A stretch of 64,000 bases of DNA from an uncultured Candidatus Saccharibacteria bacterium (GTDB lineage Bacteria; Patescibacteriota; Saccharimonadia; Saccharimonadales; JAGQNJ01). A program made the position numbers and the translations under genes. The stretch is from NCBI GenBank assembly GCA_964577565.1, contig CAZNZL010000001.1, forward strand, positions 270,566 through 334,565, in the 5' to 3' direction. Positions 687-62,993 of this stretch are shown here, in pieces. Below the pieces are notes generated by a model. It did not search any database. It saw only the letters and a list, made by a program, of their open reading frames with translations, and had not been told where the DNA came from. How positions within the stretch are numbered: the stretch's first letter is position 1; each line of letters starts with the position of its first letter.

Positions 687-1700
687 CTATTGATGCAATT
701 GTTTACCAATATCCGCAACTACTTCTACTAATCGATTACTATAACCCCATTCGTTGTCGTACCAAATAACTACTTTAACAAGATTGCCAGCCACAACATT
801 AGTTAGCAGCAAATCAATGATGCCGGAATGGCTATTGCCAATAAAATCACTACTTACCAACGGTTCATCACTGACATCAAGAACGCCTTGGTAAAATGGC
901 TCGGTGACAGCCTTCTTAAAGACATCGTTAATCTCGTCTTTAGTAACATTCTTTTTTAGCACCATTGTTACATCACTTAACGAAACCACCGGCGTTGGTA
1001 CCCGTACACTCATGCCATCAAATTTATTTTTAAGCTGTGGAACAGTAAGCGTAACAGCAATTGCCGCACCGGTAGTGGTTGGCACAATGTTTTCAGCAGC
1101 TGCTCGTGACTCGCGCATATCTTTCGCTGGACCATCTTGAAGCGCTTGGCTTGCCGTATAGCTATGAACGGTTGTGAGCATGGCTTTTTCAACTCCGAAT
1201 GCTTCATCCATAATTGACATAACAGCTGCTAACGAATTTGTAGTACAGCTTGCATTACTTATTACATCAGTAGACTTTTCTAGCTTTTCGTCATTGGCAC
1301 CCAGCACAATCGTGTCTGCATCTGGGCTTTTGGTCGGACCAGAGATTACCACACGCTTTGCGCCTGCTTTTATATGCATACGCGCATCTTCACTTTTAGT
1401 AAACCTACCTGTTGACTCTATTACAACATCTACGCCCAGTTCTTTCCATGGTAGGCTTTTTGGGTCCTTTTCGGCCGTAACAGGGATTTTATACCCTTCA
1501 ACAATGAGATTGCGTTCATCAGAGGACACCGTTTTATCGTAGGCGCCGTAGTTTGAATCATGTTTCAAAAGGTACGCTAGTGTATCAGTGTTGGTTAGGT
1601 CGTTGATAGCAACAATATCAATGTCAGACCGGTCAAAGGCAATTTTAAAAGCGTTGCGGCCAATGCGCCCAAACCCGTTAATCGCTACTTTTGTTTTCAT
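687..1700 (-). CDS. gap: glyceraldehyde-3-phosphate dehydrogenase
   Basis: N-terminal INGFGRIGR Rossmann motif, catalytic SCTTN, and WYDNEWGYS near the C-terminus. Confidence 0.95.
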   Translation of the reverse strand: MKTKVAINGFGRIGRNAFKIAFDRSDIDIVAINDLTNTDTLAYLLKHDSNYGAYDKTVSSDERNLIVEGYKIPVTAEKDPKSLPWKELGVDVVIESTGRFTKSEDARMHIKAGAKRVVISGPTKSPDADTIVLGANDEKLEKSTDVISNASCTTNSLAAVMSIMDEAFGVEKAMLTTVHSYTASQALQDGPAKDMRESRAAAENIVPTTTGAAIAVTLTVPQLKNKFDGMSVRVPTPVVSLSDVTMVLKKNVTKDEINDVFKKAVTEPFYQGVLDVSDEPLVSSDFIGNSHSGIIDLLLTNVVAGNLVKVVIWYDNEWGYSNRLVEVVADIGKQLHQ

Positions 1701-1822
1701 CCCGCTAGAAGTCCCCCTTTTTAAGAATTAATATGTTTATTACCATTACTGCTCTCCATACCTACTTCTAATGGGACTCATGTTTTACCCTCGCTTACGT
1801 TAAGGGTATTGTAGCATAAGCA

Positions 1823-2401
1823 CTACGGTCTTTCATTCTTAATTCTACTCAACTCTAAATGTAACTGATTGAATAGTTCGTTTGGCGTAGCATTATCAGA
1901 TGAAAGTAAAATATGAACCTTCTCTACCAAGTCTAAGCCATCATCATTAAGGCGCATATCTCTTTCGGCGGTACTCATATCGGGCGATCGTCTTGTAATC
2001 CGCTCTAATCGGATAGAATACGAACACGTTAATAAGACAGCCAGACAATTTTGTTTAAAATTTGCAGGAGCAATAAGTGCTTCGTCGCGGAGCATCGCAT
2101 TATTGCCCGAATATACTACGGTCTTACCGGTATTATGCACGGTCTCAAAGCCATACCGCTCAATTCCATGCACAAGTTGACGAGACCAATATATATTTAT
2201 CTTGCCGTTTTTTACTAAAGTATCGAACTCTTGTGCACTAACGTGATTATTTTCTCCTAAATCATCATTCTGACGAGAAGGCCGCGTTATATACCGCATC
2301 GGTACGATATATTCATTTTTTTGTTTCCGAAACTCATTTACTAACGATGTTTTGCCTGTAGCCGAAGAGCCAATAATAACAATGACTTTATGCGATTTCA
2401 T
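1823..2401 (-). CDS. P-loop kinase, guanylate kinase / PhnN (ribose 1,5-bisphosphokinase)-like
   Basis: Walker A GSSATGKTS, then RYITRPSR..GENNHVSAQEF...YWSR...YGF, which resembles the Gmk/PhnN family layout. Confidence 0.55.
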   Translation of the reverse strand: MKSHKVIVIIGSSATGKTSLVNEFRKQKNEYIVPMRYITRPSRQNDDLGENNHVSAQEFDTLVKNGKINIYWSRQLVHGIERYGFETVHNTGKTVVYSGNNAMLRDEALIAPANFKQNCLAVLLTCSYSIRLERITRRSPDMSTAERDMRLNDDGLDLVEKVHILLSSDNATPNELFNQLHLELSRIKNERP

Positions 2402-3732: not shown

Positions 3733-4420
3733 GTTAAAACGCATCGAACAGCTTGCTCCAAACATAAAGACGTTTTGGTTTAGGCCTGAAAAGCCCGTCA
3801 ATAATGTACCAGGGCAATTTACCGAGCTTTACTTGCCACACGATAACCCTGATGCTCGTGGCCAAAGGCGTTGGTTTACCGTTTTTTCATCGCCAACTGA
3901 AGAGCTCATGGCCATAACTACCAAATTTTCAAATCCAAGCTCTACCTACATGACAGCGCTGCAAGCCTTGAAACCTGGCACCACCCTACACTTTGCCGAG
4001 CCAATGGGTGATTTTATCCTACCCAAAGACAAAACATTGCCGCTTGTCTTCATTGCGGCTGGGATTGGCATCACCCCATTTCGAAGCATTACAAAATGGC
4101 TCTCAGACACGGGCGAACAGCGCAACATAACGCTCATATATGCCGAGTCAACGCCTGATAAATTTATCGAGACAGGCCTCTTTAACGCTCGCCTTACACA
4201 CACCCATTGTGTTGTGTCGCAGCCGACTGCAGACTGGTCAGGGCTCAAGGGTCGTCTTTCAGCCGACCTCATCCTCTCATTAGCAAAACCACAAACCCAA
4301 ACGCTTTTTTATTTGTCTGGGCCAGAAATTTTAGTAGAGAAGTTAACCAACGATTTACGCCAAACAGTACCGCCGCACCATGTTATTACCGATTTCTTTC
4401 CTGGCTACGCAGAAATATAA
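3722..4420 (+). CDS. FAD/NAD(P)-binding oxidoreductase (ferredoxin-NADP reductase-like)
   Basis: RRWFTVFSSP (RxYS-type FAD motif), GIGITPF NAD-binding motif and a C-terminal LSGP motif. Overlaps the upstream gene by 11 nt. Confidence 0.75.
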   Translation: MRAKLKRIEQLAPNIKTFWFRPEKPVNNVPGQFTELYLPHDNPDARGQRRWFTVFSSPTEELMAITTKFSNPSSTYMTALQALKPGTTLHFAEPMGDFILPKDKTLPLVFIAAGIGITPFRSITKWLSDTGEQRNITLIYAESTPDKFIETGLFNARLTHTHCVVSQPTADWSGLKGRLSADLILSLAKPQTQTLFYLSGPEILVEKLTNDLRQTVPPHHVITDFFPGYAEI

Positions 4421-4604
4421 TTTTCACACTACACGTGAAAACGCTATATATAGCGTACCTACACCATATATAGCGTGGTTTACTAATCCTGTACTGCACA
4501 CCCCTACTGAAGCATCTACCCTTGATTCTAACTTTCTTAAGAATGTTAGAATATGACAAAACGTATGATGTCACTTTTTGTTATGAGGCGGCCAAGAAAA
4601 TTAG

Positions 4605-5528
4605 TTATTTTTCTTCCAAATATTCGCGGATGCGCAAAGCCGCGGTGGCACCTTCGCCAACTGCGCTGGCAATTTGCATAGTAGCGCCGCTGCGTACATC
4701 ACCGGCCGCAAACACACCCTTCATATTCGTATGTAAATGTTCGTCGGTTTTAATAAGACCAACCTCGTCTAGTTCTAGGGCACCGTTCAAAAAACCCGTG
4801 TTTGGCAGTAAGCCCACAAATACAAACACGCCGTCGGTCGGAAACTCTACCTTTTTACCATTCTTTGTACCAATAACTTTCGTAACGTTGCCGTCCTCGC
4901 CAACGATTTCATCAGTTGTCGTACCGAGATGTATAGTGATTTTGTCGTTTTTCTCAAGTTCTTTAACTAACACATCAGAAGCCCTAAATTTACTCCGAAC
5001 CAACATGTCGATGTGGCTCGCAAATTTAGTTAAAAAGAGTGCTTCTTGAGCAGCCGAGTTGCCACCACCAACCACCACCAGGCGCTTGTCACGATAAAAG
5101 GCACCGTCGCAAGTTGCACAATAGTGTACGCCGCGCGCGTAAAATTCTGCCTCGCCCGGCACGCCAATTTTCTTATAATCACTACCGGTTGCAATTAAGA
5201 CGGCTTTAGCAAAAAGTGGACCATCAGTTGTTTCGACTTTTTTTGTGCCATCATTTTCTACACTAATGCTTAATACTTCGCCCACACGAATATCGGCGCC
5301 AAAACGCTCAGCCTGTTGCCGCAAGTCTTCAGCTAAATCCAACCCCGCTAACCCCTTTGGAAAGCCAGGGTAATTATCTACCCAGTCGGTTATCGCAGCC
5401 AAACCACCAATAACACCTTTTTCATATAAAACGGTGTCTATGTCTTCTCTAGTCGTGTATATTGCCGCGCTCAAAGCAGCTGGCCCAGCGCCCACCATTA
5501 TTACATCGTGTGTTTCTTTATCCGCCAT
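4605..5528 (-). CDS. trxB: thioredoxin-disulfide reductase
   Basis: GAGPAA FAD motif, redox-active CATCDG, GGGNSA NADPH motif. I prefer the start at 5528 (MADKETHD) because it follows GGAAGGAA. The ORF track extends to 5567. Confidence 0.92.
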   Translation of the reverse strand: MADKETHDVIMVGAGPAALSAAIYTTREDIDTVLYEKGVIGGLAAITDWVDNYPGFPKGLAGLDLAEDLRQQAERFGADIRVGEVLSISVENDGTKKVETTDGPLFAKAVLIATGSDYKKIGVPGEAEFYARGVHYCATCDGAFYRDKRLVVVGGGNSAAQEALFLTKFASHIDMLVRSKFRASDVLVKELEKNDKITIHLGTTTDEIVGEDGNVTKVIGTKNGKKVEFPTDGVFVFVGLLPNTGFLNGALELDEVGLIKTDEHLHTNMKGVFAAGDVRSGATMQIASAVGEGATAALRIREYLEEK

Positions 5529-6755: not shown

Positions 6756-8522
6756 TTAGGCTTTAATCTCAAATTGGCGGAGTTTCTTTTGCGTTGTTTC
6801 GGTCTTACCGCTTTGCAGTTTTAATAATTGAGCGTAGATGCCTTTTGTGCGAGCTAATTGCCGTGGCGAGCCCATTTCATCTACTGTGCCGTTTTTTAGC
6901 GTAACAATTTGATCAACATTTTGAATCGTACTAAGCCGGTGAGCAATGATTAGGGTTGTACGGCCGTGCATGAGCCGCTCGAGCGCGTCTTGAACCATAT
7001 GCTCACTTTTACTGTCTAAACTACTGGTTGCTTCGTCTAAAATTAAGATCGGCGCATCTTTTAAGAGAGCCCGGGCAATGGCAATGCGCTGTTTTTGCCC
7101 ACCACTTAGTTTAAGGCCGCGTTCGCCAATTTCTGTATCGTAACCTTTTTCAAATTTGCTAATAAACTCGTGTGCATTCGCGGCTTTAGCGGCGTTAATA
7201 ATATCTGCTTCATTGGCGCTTGGTTGAGCATACGCAATGTTTTCTTTTATGGTGCCGCTAAATAATGCCGGCTCTTGAAAGACAACACCAATGTTGGCGC
7301 GTAAGCTTGCTTGTGTTACTCCAGCAATATCTTGTTTGTCAATCATGATGGTGCCGGCTTGCGGCTCATACAACCGCATCAGCAGATTAGTGATGGTAGT
7401 TTTGCCTTCGCCGCTCTCCCCAACGAGCGCTACCTTCGAGTCAGGTTTGATAACAAAGCTCATGTTGTTTAAGACCTTGGTGTCATCATATGCAAAGCTT
7501 ACGTTTTCAAAGCGAATTTCACCTTTACGAACGCGCAGTTTTTTAGCTTGTGGCTTGTCAGATATACTAGGCACTGTTTCCATGACCGCAAAATAATCTT
7601 TACTGTCAGAAATCGCACGTTGTGTATTGTCCACCAAAAAGCTAATGGTAAAGATAGGAATACGAATCTGCATGGCATACAGAATAAGCGTAACTGCTTG
7701 CCCGGGTGTAAATTGACCGTGATAGGCTTGGTAAAAAATAAGTGCATACACTGCCAAAAATATAACATTGAGTATAAATCGACGCTGTATATCGCGCGTA
7801 TGCCATAGTTTTGATTGGGGTCGCGTTATTCCAATCATTTTTAAAAAGTATTTATCTAAGAAGTTGAGCTCGCGCTTTTCTTGATTAAAACTTTTTACAA
7901 CCTTTATTTGCCCAATACTTTCCGTAAAACGACCACTTGCGATATCCCAGTTGTGATTATACTTGGCTTGGTAGTCCATCCATTTACCACTCGTTTTAAT
8001 CGTCATGAGTATATAAATTGGGTACAACAGAAAAAGTAGAATCGCGATCTGCCAGCTAAAGTACGCGATAATTGCCAGCGCAAAAATAGTACTAAAGACA
8101 AACTGTAAAAAGTTATTGCTCCACATTTGCATAAAGCTACCTAACTGGCCGATAGAGCGATTCAAGCGATTGATAATTTTGCCTGATAGCTCAGTGTCAA
8201 AGTATTGCTGCGGCAAACTTAAAATATGCTCGTAATAACGAACGCTCAAAATACGCTGTAGTTTGGTGGACATCAAATCGCCCCAATAGCCTGAGATATT
8301 TGAAACCATGGTAACACCAAAATCCAGCACAAAAATACCAACTGCAATCCATAACAGTGTCGATAAATTGCCGCTGCCTTCGCGAAGCAGGTCAATGGCT
8401 CGACCAGAGAGCAACGGAGTGAGCAAGCCCATAATGGCAATTAAAATACTAAATAAACTTATGCCGAGGTAGTACCGCCACAAACTAGACGTAAATCGTA
8501 AAATCTTCCAGATATGCTTCAT
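6756..8522 (-). CDS. ABC exporter, fused permease/ATPase (MsbA-like)
   Basis: Six-TM N-terminal half, Walker A GESGEGKTT, signature LSGGQKQR, Walker B ILILDEATS. Confidence 0.9.
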   Translation of the reverse strand: MKHIWKILRFTSSLWRYYLGISLFSILIAIMGLLTPLLSGRAIDLLREGSGNLSTLLWIAVGIFVLDFGVTMVSNISGYWGDLMSTKLQRILSVRYYEHILSLPQQYFDTELSGKIINRLNRSIGQLGSFMQMWSNNFLQFVFSTIFALAIIAYFSWQIAILLFLLYPIYILMTIKTSGKWMDYQAKYNHNWDIASGRFTESIGQIKVVKSFNQEKRELNFLDKYFLKMIGITRPQSKLWHTRDIQRRFILNVIFLAVYALIFYQAYHGQFTPGQAVTLILYAMQIRIPIFTISFLVDNTQRAISDSKDYFAVMETVPSISDKPQAKKLRVRKGEIRFENVSFAYDDTKVLNNMSFVIKPDSKVALVGESGEGKTTITNLLMRLYEPQAGTIMIDKQDIAGVTQASLRANIGVVFQEPALFSGTIKENIAYAQPSANEADIINAAKAANAHEFISKFEKGYDTEIGERGLKLSGGQKQRIAIARALLKDAPILILDEATSSLDSKSEHMVQDALERLMHGRTTLIIAHRLSTIQNVDQIVTLKNGTVDEMGSPRQLARTKGIYAQLLKLQSGKTETTQKKLRQFEIKA

Positions 8523-8608
8523 TTATTTTAAGTATAAACTATGCGTTTACTTATGATAGAAAAAAGTGACAAGTGTAGATATGAAAAAGGAGGGTTTATT
8601 GACGGAGT

Positions 8609-8674
8609 AAAAAATTGATGAAGGGTGCCGCAAAGCTTTGACGACTTCTCGACCTTACGGCACCCCTCTATCAA
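8609..8674 (-). terminator. putative intrinsic terminator after the mini-ORF
   Basis: Minus strand: TTGAT..GGGTGCCG-(27 nt)-CGGCACCC..ATCAA, immediately followed by TTTTTT (8609-8614). The large loop makes it atypical. Confidence 0.45.
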
Positions 8675-8800
8675 TCACCGCTTCTCGCCGGATCCCCCGC
8701 AACTGCGACAGGTCGAGCCCTTGCTTGTGGCATTCCAAAAGCTGTGCTCACGTCCGGTGCCCTTGCAGCTTTCGCATTTCTCGCGGTTTGCCAATTTCAT
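8675..8800 (-). CDS. 41-aa zinc-ribbon mini-protein with two DnaJ-type CxxCxGxG motifs (cargo of E3)
   Basis: Own translation: MKLANREKCESCKGTGREHSFWNATSKGSTCRSCGGSGEKR*. Preceded by AAGGGGGTG and followed directly by a hairpin plus U6. Below the size cutoff of the ORF track. Confidence 0.5.
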   Translation of the reverse strand: MKLANREKCESCKGTGREHSFWNATSKGSTCRSCGGSGEKR

Positions 8801-8928
8801 CACCCCCTTACCTGAGTCTCGGTCAAAATAGAATTAAGAATATGGTGCAATCTAGCAAACGCGAAGTAGTCTTCGATCTACACTTGTCAATGTGCGCATA
8901 TGGGAGCAAGCTCAACCATAGCTTCAAC

Positions 8929-8957
8929 ACTATATAATATTTTTAATTACTTTGCAA
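8929..8957 (-). promoter_or_regulatory. sigma70-like promoter of module E3
   Basis: TTGCAA, 17 nt spacer, TATAGT on the minus strand. Confidence 0.5.
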
Positions 8958-9082
8958 TACTCTGCTCTAACAACACATAAGTATTTATGTACTCTATAGA
9001 GAAGAGACAGATGTATGATTATGAAGCGGAAAGAAAGGAGGAGCAAAAAGCTCAAACTCTAACTAACTCTCGACGCATGTCT

Positions 9083-9328
9083 CTAATAGGCCTTCGGAGG
9101 TCCCGCCGATATGCAGCAATGAGCGCAGCACGGCACATGGCGGGACCCCCGGGCGCGGAGCTGGTTTCTGGGTTTGCCAAACCAACTCGGCGAAGGGTGA
9201 CTTCCGAATCCCCGGGGAGAGGGAGGGGGGACCGGAAGTCGCCCGAAATGGCACAACATATGCATATTCGCCTTGCAGCGATTACACACGTTGTGCACGT
9301 AACTGAGAGTAACCCAACGATTTAGCAA
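9083..9328 (-). CDS. doubtful 81-aa Cys-rich ORF inside the E4 cargo (TTG start)
   Basis: Contains CNRCKA, encoded by the same GCTGCAAGG 9-mer as CESCKG in the E3 mini-protein, and a later CAHC. The rest is Pro/Ser/Arg-rich low complexity with no ATG start, so it may be a decayed or non-coding reading frame. Confidence 0.2.
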   Translation of the reverse strand: MLNRWVTLSYVHNVCNRCKANMHMLCHFGRLPVPPPSPRGFGSHPSPSWFGKPRNQLRARGSRHVPCCAHCCISAGPPKAY

Positions 9329-9669
9329 CCATTCCCCAGCTGGTAGCTTGGATTGCTAGGTCACCCTCAGATCTCGTAAGCTCGTCGGAACGTTGGCATT
9401 TCACCAAGTTCAACGCACACCCCCTGGAGCACGTCCAACTATCGCTAGAAGACGATCGAACTTACGTGAAGAGTTTTCATGTGTTTTACCACAAACGCAT
9501 CCTGAGTATGTCTACCAAGAACACTTAACTCTCCAAGCCTATGTCATTAGACAATGACGTTAATTTACTTGTAGCAAATAAACTAGCATCATTGCCTAAC
9601 GAAAACTTGTTTCATACATCTGTCAAAGATCAACTCAGGAATCGTTGCCGACTCAACCGAGTAATAAAT

Positions 9670-9698
9670 AATATACACTTTTAACAAAATAAAGTCAA
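9670..9698 (-). promoter_or_regulatory. sigma70-like promoter of module E4
   Basis: TTGACT, 17 nt spacer, TATATT on the minus strand. Confidence 0.5.
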
Positions 9699-9700
9699 TG

Positions 9701-12253
9701 CTAAATTCTGACTGCGCCGAGATGATCTTTAGCGGCAGCGGCAATTTGATCAAGTAGTTTATTAACTTCTTCAGTTACCAGTGTGCGCTGCGGGTGCGTC
9801 AAGCTAAGGCGCAACGATATGTGTTTGGTGTTGGTGGCTGTATTTTTTTGGTATATATCTAGCGGTGTTACTGTAGTGTTATAACCATGCGCTTTTTGGG
9901 CATCAGATAAAACTGCATCAACCACGGTGCGTAGGCTTGCATAATTGGTATCAACTTTTACTTTAAAACTAATGTCTTGTTGCGTATGCGGAAAGCGCGC
10001 CAGCTGCCGGTACATGTTTTTAGAGCCATAGGCTTCAAGCATTTGTATATCTAACTCAAAACCGGCGGTAAACTCAGGTAGTTTCAAATTCTTTTTAATA
10101 GTTGATTTAATTTCCCCCACTATACCAAGCAGCTTGCCATGCTCTGTTTTAATATAAGCAGTTCTGCCCCGCTCAAATGGCATTAACACCTGTTTGCCGG
10201 TATCAAGTTTTGGATCGTGACTAGTAGACGGCTCAAACACCAAATTATTAAAACCTAAACGCCCCATAAACGCCTCTATATATGCCCGCGCCTGGTAATA
10301 TGGGCTACCGCTATATGCTTTTGCTGCTTTGTTATCGGCCGCAAACACCAAGGCAAGGCGCTCTTCTTCTATGGGCAGGCCGTCTTCATGCGTATTGCTT
10401 TTATCGTGTGTCTTGTTAATTTCATATAGCGCAAACTCGCTGTGCCCAGCTTTTATATTAGGGTGAACTTTTTCGAGTAAACTTGGTAGCAAACTCAACC
10501 GATAATATTGAAGATCAGGGCTCAGCGCATTACTAAGCTGGTAGGCTAACGTTTTGTCTTGCCCAACCGCTTCAAGCAAGCGCTCATGCACAAAACTATA
10601 GGTTAAAACCTCGTTTGCACCGGCTGCGCTTAAAATTTGCCTAATTTTTTGCTTTATTTGCAGCAACCGGTTAGCTGTAGCGGGCTTAATGTTGCGACTT
10701 GGCAGCTCAACCGGCAAATTATCGTAGCCGTGCAACCGGCCGACTTCTTCAACCACGTCTTCGGCAATTTGAATATCAGTCCGCCAAAACGGTGATAAAA
10801 CCGTCAGCGCATTCTTTTTGCCCACATCAACACCAAATTCGACATTAGTAAGCAGCTTTTTAATGTGCGCCTCGGTTACGTTACTGCCCAGGCGCTCGTT
10901 AATAAACGCCGGCGTAATATCAACCTCTCGGTCATTCCAGCTGTCGTCCGCCACGTTAATGTCGTCACAATCAACAAAATCATGAACCTCACCTGCAACA
11001 TGACCACGTGCCAGTTTTTGCACCCAGGCAATCGCATACGCTAATACGCGCTTGTTTTGCAATGGGCTTTGGCCTTTATTAAAACGGGTTACGGCATCGG
11101 TAAATAAGCCATGTGCCATACTGGTGCGCCGAATAGAGTACATATCAAACGTCGCACATTCTAAAACGATGTTTTTAGTATTAAAATCAACCTCGGTCTC
11201 ACGGCCACCCATAACACCACCCACACCAATCAATTTTTTGGCGCTGGCTATCATAATTGCATCATGGTGCGGAGCTATTTCTTTGTCGTTTAGTAGGGTA
11301 AGTTTTTCATTTTTTTTGGGCTTTCTAACGACGATTGTGGCATGCGTAGCATTATCAAGCGAGACAAGTTTGTCGTAATCATAGGCATGCATCGGTTGCG
11401 CGGTCAGTGTCATGACAAAATTAGTAATATCAACAATGTTATTAATTGGCTTAATGCCAACTCGTGATAAAAAGCTTTGAATCATCACCGGCGACTTACT
11501 AACAGTCACACCACTCATTGGCACAGCCATAAAACGTGGCACCAGGTCTGCTAACTCGTTTTTTACCTCTAGTAAGAGCTTTTTGTCAGCGGTGATTTTA
11601 AAAGCATCGAGTGACTCTAAATACCATTCGGGCGATTTAAATTTGTGGTTTTGAATTCCGGCTATCTCGCGAGCAACACCTAATTGACCAAAACAATCAG
11701 GGCGATGGGTAAACATCTTGTTTTCAATATCAATAATGTAATCGTCTAGTTTGTAAACATCCTTAAACAACTCGCCTGGGTCAGCTGGCTTGTCTAATAT
11801 TAAAATGCCCTCGTGGTCATCATTAATGGCCAGCTCTTTGCCGCTTGCCAGCATGCCATTGCTGGTTACGCCGCGTAACTCTCGCGCTTCAAGCGTAAAC
11901 TGTTCGATATCAAACGTACTTGGCACAACCGCGCCAGGCGGGATCCACGCCACAGTAATGCCTTTGCGCACATTTGGCGCGCCGCAAACAACCTGCACAT
12001 AGCCGTTTTCATCACGCGCTACGTTTTTTACTTTCTTGCCATCATCAATTTTGCAAACACTCAGTTTGTCGGCATTAGGGTGTTTCTCGCAACTCACCAC
12101 CTTGGCAACCACAATTCCTTCGTAACGTTCGCCAAGATTTACAACTTCTTCAACCTCGCCAAGCTGGGCGCCAATTTTAGCCACCAACTCATCAACGCTT
12201 AGCTTAACGTCAGTAAATTCTTTAATCCAATTCAAACTAATCTTCATTTTCAA
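9701..12253 (-). CDS. pheT: phenylalanine--tRNA ligase beta subunit
   Basis: 850 aa with the N-terminal tRNA-binding domain, B3/4, B5 and C-terminal anticodon-binding-like domains. Typical MKISLNWIKEF start. Confidence 0.95.
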   Translation of the reverse strand: MKMKISLNWIKEFTDVKLSVDELVAKIGAQLGEVEEVVNLGERYEGIVVAKVVSCEKHPNADKLSVCKIDDGKKVKNVARDENGYVQVVCGAPNVRKGITVAWIPPGAVVPSTFDIEQFTLEARELRGVTSNGMLASGKELAINDDHEGILILDKPADPGELFKDVYKLDDYIIDIENKMFTHRPDCFGQLGVAREIAGIQNHKFKSPEWYLESLDAFKITADKKLLLEVKNELADLVPRFMAVPMSGVTVSKSPVMIQSFLSRVGIKPINNIVDITNFVMTLTAQPMHAYDYDKLVSLDNATHATIVVRKPKKNEKLTLLNDKEIAPHHDAIMIASAKKLIGVGGVMGGRETEVDFNTKNIVLECATFDMYSIRRTSMAHGLFTDAVTRFNKGQSPLQNKRVLAYAIAWVQKLARGHVAGEVHDFVDCDDINVADDSWNDREVDITPAFINERLGSNVTEAHIKKLLTNVEFGVDVGKKNALTVLSPFWRTDIQIAEDVVEEVGRLHGYDNLPVELPSRNIKPATANRLLQIKQKIRQILSAAGANEVLTYSFVHERLLEAVGQDKTLAYQLSNALSPDLQYYRLSLLPSLLEKVHPNIKAGHSEFALYEINKTHDKSNTHEDGLPIEEERLALVFAADNKAAKAYSGSPYYQARAYIEAFMGRLGFNNLVFEPSTSHDPKLDTGKQVLMPFERGRTAYIKTEHGKLLGIVGEIKSTIKKNLKLPEFTAGFELDIQMLEAYGSKNMYRQLARFPHTQQDISFKVKVDTNYASLRTVVDAVLSDAQKAHGYNTTVTPLDIYQKNTATNTKHISLRLSLTHPQRTLVTEEVNKLLDQIAAAAKDHLGAVRI

Positions 12254-61280: not shown

Positions 61281-62993
61281 ATGAAGAACATCAAGCGTAA
61301 AATACGATCAGCAGTTAAGCTGGCTACAAAATTACCAGCCAAACCATTACATCGTCTTGTGTGGTTTATTCTTGTTTTTGGGGTAGTAGGTGGCACTGTA
61401 TTATTACTCCGCTCTGAAGCAGCCATTCTTTACGCCCCTAACCCGCCACACGCGGCTACTTGTGTAGAAAATTTACCGAGTAAAACGGTTGTAAGGCCAG
61501 GCGAAACATTTACGGCACGCGTTCGCATTCGTAACACTGGTAGTTCAACATTCAGTAAAAATTTTGGTGTAGCGTTATGGGAATACAGAGACGGAGGAAA
61601 CATATGGAATGCATCTGGTACGAGCTTAGGTAGCGACGTAGGACCCGGCGGTACAGCCACATTTAACTTAACCGTTAGAGCCCCTTCGCAACCCGGTAAC
61701 TATTCATTTAATTGGGGCGTCGGTATCGCCTTGAATGGCTATATAAGAAACCCCTGTACGGGCCGCTCTATACTCGTAACCCACCCACCTTCAGTATCAC
61801 TAACAGCTAATAATCAAACAGGTACCCTTAATCTGCTACGCGGTAATGGTCTAACGCTTAATTGGTCGGTTGCCAACAACCCCTCTAACTGTGTCGCCTC
61901 GGGTAGTTGGAGTGGCGGTAAGCCAGCCTCTGGCAGTGAGAACAGAACAGGCGACACAAATACTACGGGTACAAAAACCTACACGCTCGCTTGCGCTAAC
62001 GGGGCTGGATCTGATAGTGCCACCAGAACCGTTAATGTCAGCAGCCCCCCGTCATCACCGCGGCCGTCTTCTCCAAGCAGGCCTTCATCTCCATCTGGTG
62101 GCAGTACACCGAGCACACCCAGCGCTCCATCATCGCCATCTGAGCAGCCAGCTGCGCCAGTACCACCACCCACTCCTACATCTTTTAGCGCTACTGTCGA
62201 AGATGGTGTTGCGGTTCAGCTTACCTGGGACAAACCAAATTATTCCGGAATATTAAGAGGCTATGAACTCGAGCGCTCAACCGATAATCAAAACTGGCAA
62301 GCGCTCGGCTCAGATTTGATAACCGATGAATCTGTTACAGATTCTACGACTCAGTTCCAGACCACCTATTTCTATCGCATTCGTGCTATTGACCAAAGCG
62401 GTGAGAAGTCAGGCTATGCCGCTACTGAGGTTACCACGCCGCCTTTCGTGCCCAATACAGCCGCCGAAGGAACTACTTTTAACAGCGATGATGGACTTAT
62501 TTCTGTGTTTGTCCCGGGTGATGCACTGACAGAAGAGGCGTCGTGCTCTTTGCAAGGCAACTATGATGTTATACCACCATCTGAAAAAGACTTTGTAACC
62601 CTGGCCGGCCCGTTAGAAATGCTTTGTAAAACCGCTGCCGGTAATAAGATTACCCAGTTCAATAAACCGCTTCAGGTAACTGTTAGCGCGCCTAATGACA
62701 ATTATGGCGCTTTCGCGTACTTTGTCATGACCGAACAACAAGAGTGGCAAAAAATAGAAGGTGATTTTAACGATGGTAGAGGATCCTTCTCGCTTGAAAA
62801 TGCCACTATTTTTGCCGTACTTGGCAAGAAAAAGTCTATGCCGCTGTTCATAAAAGTTATGATCTTTTTAGTCGTCATTGGTGGTGTGGCGTTCGGTGGC
62901 CTACTGGCCGTTAATTTTTATGGCCGTTGGCGTCAAGCTAAAGCAATAGAAGAACGCAACGAAAACTATCACCGTCAAGAATTAGGCTTGTAG
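61281..62993 (+). CDS. cell-surface protein: Ig-like/NBR1-like N-domain, Pro/Ser linker, FN3-like domain, C-terminal TM anchor
   Basis: N-terminal signal/TM helix, SSPPSSPRPSSPSRPSSPSGGSTPSTPSAPSSPS linker, an FN3-like block (WDKPNYSGILRGYELERS...YFYRIRAID), and a hydrophobic helix near the C-terminus. Confidence 0.6.
   Translation: MKNIKRKIRSAVKLATKLPAKPLHRLVWFILVFGVVGGTVLLLRSEAAILYAPNPPHAATCVENLPSKTVVRPGETFTARVRIRNTGSSTFSKNFGVALWEYRDGGNIWNASGTSLGSDVGPGGTATFNLTVRAPSQPGNYSFNWGVGIALNGYIRNPCTGRSILVTHPPSVSLTANNQTGTLNLLRGNGLTLNWSVANNPSNCVASGSWSGGKPASGSENRTGDTNTTGTKTYTLACANGAGSDSATRTVNVSSPPSSPRPSSPSRPSSPSGGSTPSTPSAPSSPSEQPAAPVPPPTPTSFSATVEDGVAVQLTWDKPNYSGILRGYELERSTDNQNWQALGSDLITDESVTDSTTQFQTTYFYRIRAIDQSGEKSGYAATEVTTPPFVPNTAAEGTTFNSDDGLISVFVPGDALTEEASCSLQGNYDVIPPSEKDFVTLAGPLEMLCKTAAGNKITQFNKPLQVTVSAPNDNYGAFAYFVMTEQQEWQKIEGDFNDGRGSFSLENATIFAVLGKKKSMPLFIKVMIFLVVIGGVAFGGLLAVNFYGRWRQAKAIEERNENYHRQELGL

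Follow-up and report, generated by a model that had tools for sequence, protein, structure and literature searches.

A putative hammerhead-less member of a single-gene cassette family at the pheT/ABC-exporter junction of Saccharibacteria

In a 64,000-nt stretch of a Saccharibacteria genome (hereafter the window), the minus strand between pheT and an ABC exporter gene holds a module, E3, that is probably an autonomous accessory mini-gene, enclosed in an RNA framework that would give its transcript defined, protected ends. The framework recurs in a family of hammerhead-tailed single-gene cassettes that is widespread in Saccharibacteria and apparently undescribed; we found no published description of hammerhead cassettes with such a promoter, leader and bracket. 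E3 itself has no ribozyme; what places it, putatively, in the family is the combination of its architectural features, together with chains of sequence homology.

The role of bacterial hammerhead ribozymes is still largely unknown. In bacterial prophages, clustered hammerheads flank single genes or short gene blocks, and a 2011 survey proposed, as a suggestion only, that long phage transcripts are thereby processed into single-gene mRNAs (Perreault et al, 2011; PMC3088659). Most RAGATH motifs are also still without an assigned function (PMC11061315). The E3 locus leads to a recurrent, well-delimited hammerhead context open to direct test: a chromosomal, promoter-driven, single-gene cassette, of which natural ribozyme-less variants (E3, E2 and the loci L002 and L104) and natural tandem arrays (L096 and L099) exist. 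In Saccharibacteria, epibionts with reduced genomes, the cassettes further point to a store of accessory proteins, most of them orphans.

Results

Promoter, leader and closing helix of E3

The E3 locus comprises the following features, listed in the direction of transcription:

8929-8957, minus strand: predicted sigma-70-type promoter, TTGCAA (8957-8952), 17 nt, TATAGT (8934-8929)
near 8922, minus strand: predicted E3 transcription start, placed from the promoter match
8920-8899, minus strand: bulged leader hairpin at the 5' end of the transcript, UAUGG-UU-GAG-CUUG-CUC-CCAUA
8891-8883, minus strand: AUUGACAAG box
8889-8876, minus strand: 5' arm of the long-range stem, UGACAAGUGUAGAU, whose first bases are the family-wide UGACA(A)G box
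8875-8804, minus strand: 5' UTR, ending in the Shine-Dalgarno sequence UAAGGGGGU (8810-8802)
8800-8675, minus strand: small-protein ORF, MKLANREKCESCKGTGREHSFWNATSKGSTCRSCGGSGEKR, 39-41 codons, stop codon 8677-8675
8668-8620, minus strand: G+C-rich 3'-UTR hairpin from fold prediction, GAGGGGUGCCG...CGGCACCCUUC
8580-8567, minus strand: 3' arm of the long-range stem, AUCUACACUUGUCA, complement of the 5' arm
6756-8522, minus strand: ABC exporter gene, starting 44 nt downstream of E3 (8566-8523 between)

The promoter, the hairpin and the AUUGACAAG box had been named in the first-pass annotation, and all are present at these minus-strand positions. By consensus match, the region contains three promoter-like sites against 2.7 expected, which places the E3 promoter, taken alone, at chance level. 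Together with the leader (8960-8880), it aligns at 64% identity with its counterpart at L104, a locus in a second Saccharibacteria genome. The leader hairpin is present both in the sequence and in minimum-free-energy folds. Above the lower stem (UAUGG/CCAUA) come a UU bulge of 2 nt in the 5' strand, an upper stem (GAG/CUC) and a CUUG loop. This is the form seen throughout the family, namely a lower stem of 5-7 bp, a 5'-side 2-nt bulge and an upper stem starting G-A-G/C. Counting the G-C extension at 8922-8921, 6 nt lie between the -10 hexamer and the first paired base. This spacing agrees with a transcript starting at the leader hairpin; in most cassettes, the -10 box and the hairpin are 4-7 nt apart.

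The 5' arm follows 8 nt past the hairpin. As the annotation had described, the two arms form a perfect inverted repeat (14/14 bp) around a 295-nt core, and they are of the family type, with a 5' arm starting UGACA(A)G and a complementary 3' arm ending C(U)UGUCA. An inverted repeat of at least 14 bp at 150-1000 nt spacing occurred in 2 of 1000 shuffles of 8400-9000. The core had also been called G+C-rich; this is true of positions 8681-8740 (36/60), but the whole core (8581-8875) reaches only 50%, compared with 43.8% for the window.

Directly after the 3' arm, where the hammerhead members carry UAUUCGCUC and the ribozyme, E3 has C-U6-C (U run 8565-8560). No type III hammerhead follows the arm, and CUUUUUUC stands there instead; neither a CUGANGA...GAAA core nor an Rfam hammerhead match (E up to 10) occurs in 8400-9800. 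Inspection by eye for a decayed hammerhead downstream of E3 or E2 gave vague hairpins only, with no core. E3 was therefore classified as a peripheral, hammerhead-less variant and not as a full member, the hammerhead being the most diagnostic part of the family.

A terminator scan found no intrinsic terminator in 8300-9900. The 3'-UTR hairpin was rejected as a canonical one, given its 27-nt loop and the 5-nt gap before its U6 (8614-8609), as was the U6 at 8565-8560, which is preceded only by the long-range helix. Comparable G+C-rich hairpins are also found 3' of the ORFs in the L096 cassettes. With only a U6 after the closing helix and no canonical terminator, the E3 transcript probably ends inefficiently or reads into the exporter.

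A conserved small ORF in E3 for a predicted cysteine-rich protein

The core was described in the first-pass annotation as non-coding-looking, which proved wrong: it contains a conserved small ORF and the 3'-UTR hairpin. In keeping with the family definition, one ORF behind a Shine-Dalgarno sequence, followed by such a hairpin, lies between the arms. Standard gene callers overlook the cassette genes or put them on the wrong strand; in both E3 and the complete cassette H1, they placed an antisense ORF. The E3 ORF could also start with GTG (8803) or TTG (8794); from the TTG, a 39-aa product results, which gives the best alignment with the homologue.

Among 1.84 billion representative proteins, an exhaustive HMMER search returned a single match, the 41-aa protein P0002 (E = 2.3e-5), which is 54% identical to the E3 peptide over the matched stretch. 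Its gene lies in L104 between pheT/DUF2207 and an orthologous ABC exporter, behind a promoter and leader homologous to those of E3, and the E3 Shine-Dalgarno region aligns with AAGGAGGUGA upstream of it. Different codons are used at 10 of the 19 identical residues, and the nucleotide differences are distributed 14/17/26 over the three codon positions; this substitution pattern looks protein-coding.

The predicted E3 protein has four cysteines and two exact CxxCxGxG motifs about 22 residues apart, both conserved in P0002. It scores 20.4 bits (E = 6.4e-4) against Pfam DnaJ_CXXCXGXG (PF00684), under the curated cutoff of 32.7 bits; with the motifs visible and conserved in P0002 and the score below the cutoff, we regard the peptide as resembling this family and not as a scored member. 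The motifs recall the CxxCxGxG zinc-binding modules known from Anti-TRAP and from DnaJ, whose cysteine-rich domain (1EXK) is the solved structure that matches best by sequence (E = 0.044, below threshold). Unlike DnaJ, the E3 product would stand alone at about 40 residues, with two motifs rather than four and no J domain. Judged by these motifs, it is predicted to be a zinc-ribbon-like, putatively zinc-binding protein of about 40 residues.

Word-indexed homology searches gave nothing for the E3 peptide or the H1 ORF and only a self-match for the H2 ORF, and none of the three proteins matched PADLOC. Against PHROG, the H1 and H2 proteins had no match and the E3 peptide only weak ones, to PHROGs of unknown function. 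A tblastn search of the peptide against phage genomes gave only matches at E = 0.8, and its AlphaFold2 model was uninformative (pLDDT 56).

Sister modules in the window

Three further modules in the window share the E3 framework, two of them with a hammerhead:

9006-9698, minus strand: E2, hammerhead-less sister cassette with the same promoter, leader and bracket
22096-22999, minus strand: H1, complete cassette with promoter, leader, 11-bp bracket and a 160-aa orphan ORF
22148-22097, minus strand: type III hammerhead of H1, intact core
21185-22079, minus strand: H2, complete cassette with promoter, leader, 16-nt bracket (94% complementary) and a 179-aa orphan ORF
21236-21186, minus strand: type III hammerhead of H2, intact core

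The first-pass comparison of E3 with these modules holds for the ordered framework, since promoter, hairpin, UGACA(A)G arm and long-range complement are common to all four. It needs two minor corrections on the conserved boxes: GGUUGAG is exact in E3 and E2 only, H1 and H2 carrying GUGUUGAG, and H2 has UUAACA in place of UUGACA. The H1 and H2 hammerheads are predicted ribozymes, scoring 28.9 bits against Rfam RF00008, under its gathering score of 48.5; their predicted cleavage sites, UUCGCUC|C, are at about 22142 (H1) and 21230 (H2). Transcripts would start at about 22963 in H1, 22044 in H2 and 9663 in E2. The H1 protein is not related to that of H2. E2 departs from the single-ORF pattern of the family; its 593-nt core contains no ORF and has a very strong predicted structure (z = -12.75). 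No protein is common to E2 and its counterpart at L002, and their alignment is limited to the framework ends. A G+C-rich island at 61.9-62.2 kb beside a GGTTGAG match was rejected as a cassette, as it lies within a surface-protein ORF.

E3 and E2 correspond to no known RNA family, as the annotation had concluded for E3. At gathering scores, Rfam 15 yields four tRNAs only in the whole window, and at E up to 10 the interval 8400-9800 gives only chance-level miRNA and snoRNA matches and no family for E3 or E2. RNase P RNA, tmRNA, SRP RNA and riboswitch identities for E3 were rejected for want of an Rfam 15 match.

A family of hammerhead-tailed single-gene cassettes

A metagenome scan identified 62 loci with the hammerhead pattern, most of them also with the conserved 3' arm, and the full layout was traced at 30 loci, of which two are duplicates, giving about 28 distinct cassettes. 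Its elements are, in order, a promoter, a bulged 5' hairpin, a UGACAAGCAGAC arm, one ORF, the complementary arm and a type III hammerhead. In most cassettes the hammerhead begins 1-2 nt past the 3' arm, and cleavage is predicted about 9 nt beyond that arm; a bulged leader hairpin is predicted in nearly all. The leader-hairpin stems are paired in 98% of alignment cells, with changes on both sides in 6/8 pairs; for the stems overall the figures are 97% and 14/20, against about 38% paired when partners are slid, and these covariation counts lean towards pairing because the stem alignment was built by searching for complementarity.

The ORFs are diverse, mostly orphan and unrelated between cassettes. 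The cargo has coding-type G+C by codon position, and that of one cassette resembles the anti-Thoeris protein Tad4. Four cassettes stand in tandem in each of the arrays L096 and L099, and H1 and H2 form a tandem pair in the window. The cassettes sit among chromosomal housekeeping genes of Saccharibacteria relatives, and no integrase, reverse transcriptase or transposase is among the 25 commonest of about 100 Pfam families matched near them. A phage or prophage origin was rejected in view of these housekeeping flanks and of two pattern scans of viral contigs, which gave either zero matches or 83 chance matches without a partner arm. Downstream neighbours are convergent in 25 cases and co-oriented in 14; the idea that the hammerhead replaces a terminator to keep downstream host genes transcribed was set aside on this count. 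Sequestration of the Shine-Dalgarno sequence by the pyrimidine-rich stretch preceding the 3' arm, a specific form of the proposed stability and insulation role, was likewise rejected as a feature common to the family (mean z = -0.15, 29 cassettes).

Relatives of E3 and E2 are carried at L002 and L104, and all four are peripheral, hammerhead-less members. The proposal that E3 is a third member of a cassette family is thus borne out as regards the framework, which recurs in the roughly 28 metagenome cassettes and at both of these loci, and has to be qualified for the missing hammerhead. Copies in related genomes exist, contrary to the outcome that the first-pass annotation had named as speaking against its reading. 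Its assumption of a CPR genome also proved right, the genome being one of Saccharibacteria.

The leader covariance model that the annotation suggested left E3, taken alone, short of significance. We built models of the leader plus 5' arm from hand-registered alignments of hairpins with trimmed apical loops. A model from 15 metagenome cassettes scored E3 at 6.2 bits (E = 4.4), H1 at 16.5 bits (E = 0.004) and the L002 relative of E2 at 13.3 bits (E = 0.008). With a model that left E3 out, E3 reached 11.3 bits (E = 0.29) and was the best non-training match in the window. When the leaders were aligned untrimmed with MAFFT, no consensus structure emerged, and a sequence-only HMM made from that alignment placed E3 at E = 0.45.

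Could E3 resemble the cassettes by chance, an A+T-rich site that looks like a promoter coinciding with a short hairpin and an inverted repeat, and could its ORF be a spurious one in G+C-rich sequence? The short motifs are weak singly, as the chance rate of promoter-like sites illustrates, the two covariance-model E-values for E3 are 0.29 and 4.4, and the Pfam match stays under its cutoff. Against this, the 14-bp repeat, rare in shuffles, starts exactly at the family UGACAAG box; a search of 715 kb for the strict hairpin pattern gave bracketed matches at the four window modules and L002 only, four others being unbracketed; the E3 leader leads the non-training matches of the leave-one-out model; and L104 has both a homologous leader and a homologous ORF. 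We strongly disfavour coincidence and consider it extremely improbable.

The insertion site and the ABC exporter

In 14 relatives, pheT abuts the exporter gene directly (-4 to +38 nt) and the E3/E2-type insertion is absent. From this comparison, E3, E2 and their L002/L104 relatives appear to be insertions at the pheT/ABC-exporter junction; L002 keeps a cassette at this site without the peptide. The 588-aa exporter combines ABC_membrane and ABC_tran domains and lacks a peptidase domain, and neither a promoter nor a Shine-Dalgarno sequence is obvious for its gene alone. The L104 ortholog shares 65% aa identity and occupies the same position relative to the peptide gene, the L104 cassette lying about 140 nt upstream of it. 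E3 is possibly co-transcribed with the exporter.

This arrangement invites a reading in which E3 controls the exporter in cis, as a leader or regulatory RNA (a structured 5' UTR, an attenuator or a riboswitch-like element), possibly including a leader peptide. E3 is co-oriented with the exporter, whose start codon comes 44 nt past the 3' arm with no canonical terminator between; the L104 peptide cassette also precedes the orthologous exporter at short distance, and the exporter gene lacks obvious initiation signals of its own. The 14 relatives, however, have the exporter directly behind pheT with no such element, and elsewhere the framework encloses unrelated genes at unrelated loci, mostly beside a convergent gene. 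The amino-acid sequence of the peptide is conserved, although a simple attenuator leader peptide would not require this, and no Rfam family matches. We therefore judge a cis-regulatory role for the exporter unlikely.

If, alternatively, the linkage to the exporter were the point of the locus, the cysteine-rich peptide might be secreted, for instance as a RiPP precursor or bacteriocin, or might act as a partner of the exporter. The peptide gene does adjoin orthologous exporters in two genomes, and the product is small with four cysteines. Yet the exporter has no peptidase domain and is conserved in relatives without the peptide, the L002 cassette occupies the site without it, and the peptide shows no recognizable leader or double-glycine motif; its cysteines lie in CxxCxGxG zinc-knuckle motifs, as in the DnaJ cysteine-rich domain. 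The odds of this explanation are slim.

Since the locus is polymorphic for the insertion, we also considered a MITE-like non-autonomous DNA element, in which the arms would be terminal inverted repeats recognized by a transposase and RNA structure would be irrelevant. The cassettes are indeed scattered in intergenic DNA, and the arm sequence (TGACAAGCAGAC / GTCTGCTTGTCA) is conserved across many of them. However, the promoter and leader, which are conserved, precede the 5' arm and the hammerhead follows the 3' arm, and the arms of divergent members change on both sides and yet stay complementary, which points to selection for pairing and not for a protein-binding sequence. Furthermore, no target-site duplication was seen flanking the E3 arms, no transposase or integrase is enriched near the cassettes and no cassette was found in viral contigs. 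A MITE-like origin is accordingly very unlikely.

Discussion

The explanation that we favour, with the reservations given above, is that of an autonomous accessory mini-gene between pheT and the exporter. We infer the role of the framework in defining and protecting the ends of accessory mRNAs from its architecture. The 5' hairpin would protect the start of the transcript, and the closing helix would keep its two ends in contact. The 3' end of complete members would arise through self-cleavage by the hammerhead, with a 2',3'-cyclic phosphate as the result, and not through termination. Inserted accessory genes may thereby be expressed stably and in insulation from their surroundings, and E3 would be a peripheral member that lacks or has lost the ribozyme. 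Should this model of end protection be true, the framework would amount to a naturally occurring design for expression that is both stable and insulated.

The cassettes resemble the hammerhead clusters of prophages in bracketing individual genes of varying identity, the L096 and L099 arrays and the H1-H2 pair in particular. They differ in that each has its own promoter, a conserved bulged 5' hairpin and a conserved closing helix, and in that they occur among housekeeping genes and not by integrases or in prophages. E3 differs further in having no hammerhead.

Phage morons and integron gene cassettes are modular units with one accessory gene. Like them, the Saccharibacteria cassettes place single, mostly orphan genes of differing base composition between resident genes; each has its own promoter, as morons do, and diverse cargo between conserved flanks, as integron arrays do. 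Unlike morons, however, they have a 3' end that is not terminator-based, and unlike integrons they show no attC site, integrase or common array promoter. A further difference is that the conserved flanks of the cassettes are covarying RNA structures.

Stem-loops at the 5' end stabilize mRNAs such as that of ompA, through its 5' UTR, and ribozymes serve as synthetic insulators in RiboJ. As in the ompA 5' UTR, the cassette hairpin stands at, or within a few nt of, the predicted transcription start; as in RiboJ, a self-cleaving ribozyme (predicted here) sets one end of the transcript, but at the 3' and not the 5' end. Neither is known to have a counterpart to the long-range closing helix of the cassettes.

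More speculatively, Saccharibacteria may keep a pool of exchangeable accessory genes as "ribozyme-capped" mRNA cassettes, with hairpin, helix and hammerhead forming a dedicated system of RNA processing and recognition that goes beyond stabilization. We think this improbable. Under such a scheme, the framework could be a handle for a specific RNA-binding protein, or for mobility or export at the RNA level, and read-through products of tandem arrays, with their 5'-OH and 2',3'-cyclic phosphate ends, could circularize. E3 and E2 would then be ribozyme-less derivatives fixed at the pheT/ABC-exporter junction.

RAGATH-10 (Rfam RF03147, threshold 41.2 bits) is an 82-nt three-stem element that includes the Shine-Dalgarno sequence and corresponds to neither the leader hairpin nor the bracket. 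It has no match in E3 at E up to 10 and a weak one in H1 (25.7 bits). In the 5' UTRs of the L070 and L103 cassettes it scores above threshold (54.3 and 45.5 bits, respectively), so that one piece of the cassette family is already catalogued as a hammerhead-associated motif.

The E3 module contains a conserved small gene

E3 (8567-8957, minus strand) lies upstream of an ABC exporter gene (6756..8522, minus strand). The first-pass annotation had described it as a non-coding-looking member of a cassette family, and every feature on which that description drew is present on the minus strand (first four lines below), as is a G+C count of 36/60 in 8681-8740.

Features of E3
8957-8952 / 8934-8929 (-), promoter, TTGCAA, 17 nt, TATAGT (sequence, promoter scan)
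8920-8899 (-), hairpin UAUGG-UU-GAG-CUUG-CUC-CCAUA (sequence and predicted fold)
8891-8883 (-), AUUGACAAG box (sequence)
8889-8876 with 8580-8567 (-), long-range stem, a perfect 14-bp inverted repeat enclosing 295 nt
8810-8802 (-), Shine-Dalgarno sequence UAAGGGGGU, upstream of the E3 ORF
8800-8675 (-), E3 ORF, product MKLANREKCESCKGTGREHSFWNATSKGSTCRSCGGSGEKR, two exact CxxCxGxG motifs
8668-8620 (-), long G+C-rich hairpin, 3' of the ORF

In 1000 shuffles of the region, an inverted repeat this long and so spaced turned up twice; the promoter match by itself occurs at chance rate, and the complete RNA has a somewhat better predicted fold than its shuffles (z = -3.9). Rfam assigns no family to the interval, in agreement with the earlier view that RNase P RNA, tmRNA, SRP RNA and riboswitches do not fit.

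The cassette framework of that description stands, and its non-coding core does not: the "G+C-rich core" is a gene, holding an ORF with a conserved homologue. A word-based search with the peptide gave no match, and HMMER, run exhaustively against 1.84 billion representative proteins, returned a sole relative, a 41-aa protein with 54% identity over the matched stretch (E = 2.3e-5). This protein is encoded at L104, a locus in another member of the Saccharibacteria (assembly GCA_038316995.1), between pheT/DUF2207 and an ABC exporter gene orthologous to that in the window (65% amino acid identity), and its gene is preceded by a promoter and leader that can be aligned to the counterparts in E3 and in E2, the neighboring sister cassette. 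Because 10 of the 19 identical residues are encoded by different codons, and differences between the two ORFs are distributed 14/17/26 over the codon positions, we conclude that the E3 ORF is probably under protein-level selection. Alignment with the homologue suggests that the true start may be the TTG at 8794, yielding 39 aa. The peptide weakly resembles DnaJ-type zinc knuckles, and its structure is predicted with low confidence.

A 99-aa gene-caller ORF antisense to the E3 ORF is without coding-type composition, and at L104 the equivalent strand has no called gene. In the public gene calls (Logan contigs), the ORF annotated is the antisense one, both at E3 (8638-8937, plus strand) and at the hammerhead cassette H1 (22320-22805, plus strand); at both, the strand passed over carries a promoter, a Shine-Dalgarno sequence, and coding-type composition. 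Owing to this mis-call, the H1 protein is absent from the protein database.

E2 and E3 occupy the pheT-exporter junction

In 14 Saccharibacteria relatives, the distance from the pheT end to the exporter start codon is -4 to +38 nt; in the window this gap measures 1178 nt and is occupied by E2 and E3, the latter being an insertion. The locus with the closest pheT (L002, 64% identity) has a 690-nt gap with an E2-like cassette, and L104 carries one cassette, a long structured region followed by the peptide ORF.

E2 (9006-9698, minus strand) has an E3-type promoter and leader (the bulged 5' hairpin) and a 13-bp bracket, the long-range closing helix, around a 593-nt core without a convincing ORF. 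This core is predicted to form long, near-perfect G+C-rich hairpins arranged in a fan (z = -12.75), and the L002 cassette at the same locus (4056-4617, plus strand) folds comparably strongly (z = -11.8). The two framework ends of these cassettes can be aligned; their interiors cannot.

A widespread family of hammerhead cassettes

The window derives from a Saccharibacteria genome, and its modules H1 (22096-22999) and H2 (21185-22079), both on the minus strand, each terminate with a type III hammerhead whose core is intact and carry one orphan ORF with clear coding periodicity (G+C by codon position, 0.61/0.36/0.73 and 0.67/0.37/0.68, respectively). The two hammerheads (22148-22097 and 21236-21186, minus strand) are nearly identical, type III, and each below the Rfam gathering score. 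The cassettes are adjacent, with mutually unrelated ORFs of 160 and 179 aa, whose third-position G+C is about 0.7 versus 0.43-0.53 in host genes (n = 4 checked).

Scanning metagenome contigs for this hammerhead variant yielded 62 loci, most with ..GUCUGCUUGUCA-UA-UUCGCUC before the ribozyme. In 30 of the 62 (about 28 distinct cassettes), a complementary UGACAAGCAGAC occurs 450-1150 nt upstream, and before it come a promoter and a hairpin that carries a 2-nt bulge on its 5' side. In most cassettes, 4-7 nt separate this hairpin from the -10 hexamer (6 nt in E3), which puts it right at the start of the predicted transcript. In a hand-registered alignment of 21 cassettes, which leans towards pairing since the arms had been found by complementarity search, 97% of stem cells are paired and 14 of 20 pairs are changed on both sides, compared with about 38% pairing in slid controls. 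Such covariation, together with conserved cassette parts outside the arms, disfavors the interpretation of the arms as terminal inverted repeats of a transposon.

The cargo ORFs (80-317 aa) are mutually unrelated and mostly lack Pfam matches; the only ones obtained were to Tad4 (8e-19), to DUF2807, and, weakly and below its cutoff, to Rce1-like. Tad4 is used by phages to inhibit type I Thoeris defence; the matching cargo (L103, about 1185-1975, plus strand) belongs to a cassette in chromosomal context. Cassettes sit among housekeeping genes; of about 100 families matched in the flanks, the 25 most frequent include no integrase, transposase, or reverse transcriptase. Several cassette contigs encode proteins 58-78% identical to window proteins, and no cassette was found in the viral contigs searched.

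Tandem arrays of four cassettes each occur at L096 (1260-3950, plus strand) and L099 (1500-3300, minus strand). Every array cassette has its own promoter, small ORF, and G+C-rich hairpin 3' of the ORF, and leader and bracket sequences differ (e.g., UAGGUAGUA/UACUACCUA); the arrays constitute a second subfamily built on this design. One subfamily (L060, L068, L080, L081, L094, L103) shares a 3'-UTR element, ..CCUAGGUUCACGG-N4-CCGUGAUGUUUUCCUUAACCCUAU, just before GUCUGCUUGUCA and about 45 nt upstream of the 3' arm, so that the conserved framework reaches past the arm in these members.

E3 as a probable peripheral member lacking the ribozyme

E3 has all architectural features of the family except the hammerhead: its 3' arm is followed by CUUUUUUC, with no ribozyme in that place. 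Across 715 kb, the strict hairpin pattern is accompanied by a matching bracket only at the four window modules and L002. Covariance models of the leader, a check proposed in the first-pass annotation, are less decisive. In one built from metagenome cassettes only, H1 had the top score (16.5 bits, E = 0.004), H2 came next, and the E2-like leader of L002 reached 13.3 bits (E = 0.008), with E3 at only 6.2 bits (E = 4.4). A model including the nearer relatives of E3, but not E3 itself, gave E3 11.3 bits (E = 0.29), the top non-training match in the window. Membership rests on the leader, the arm box, and the exactly placed 14-bp partner taken together, and on chains of homology: the leader and ORF of L104 connect to those of E3, the L104 leader in turn to E2, and E2 to the corresponding cassette in L002. 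We thus file E3 as a putative peripheral, hammerhead-less variant.

A scan for canonical terminators at E3 found none and, as a ribozyme is also missing, read-through into the exporter is plausible. This keeps alive the reading of E3 as a leader of the exporter gene, which we consider unlikely. We regard E3 as a small, real gene inside a variant, lacking the ribozyme, of this widespread family of cassettes.

Elsewhere in the window, 61876-62225 was rejected as a cassette: this G+C-rich island beside a GGTTGAG match is part of a plus-strand ORF of 570 aa that has an Ig-like domain, and reads there like a low-complexity linker.

Relation to known motifs and a possible role of the framework

The Rfam motif RAGATH-10 passes its threshold in two cassettes, where it falls in the 5' UTR, and gives a weak match in H1:

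L070 5388-5466 (-), RAGATH-10 (Rfam)
L103 1186-1264 (+), RAGATH-10 (Rfam)
window 22777-22848 (-), RAGATH-10 (Rfam)

It is located downstream of the 5' arm and ahead of the start codon, with the Shine-Dalgarno sequence within its 3' strand. RAGATH-10, previously listed as a motif associated with hammerheads and without an assigned function (PMC11061315), thus represents an already catalogued fragment of the cassette family, and gains a defined genetic context. Hammerheads flanking single genes are a known pattern (PMC3088659), to which the Saccharibacteria cassettes add a new, conserved promoter/leader/closing-helix architecture; we found no published link between hammerheads and Saccharibacteria or Patescibacteria.

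The architecture and its conservation are established; from this architecture, we infer that the framework may be an RNA-level device for producing mRNA with defined, protected ends. A stem-loop would form the 5' end of the transcript, the helix would tie the 5' UTR to the 3' UTR, and in full members the 3' end would arise by hammerhead cleavage, predicted about 9 nt past the helix, instead of termination. A test of whether the 3' tract sequesters the Shine-Dalgarno sequence gave no support. Among L042-L103, the hammerhead is followed by the 3' end of a convergent gene in 25 cases (many within 1-60 nt) versus the start of a co-oriented gene in 14, which suggests that cassettes preferentially reside in convergent intergenic spacers; with downstream genes mostly convergent, the idea that the ribozyme permits non-polar read-through into the host genes downstream was not supported either. 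Read-through from H1 into H2 would, upon putative hammerhead cleavage, release an RNA with 5'-OH and 2',3'-cyclic phosphate ends that is circularisable in principle.
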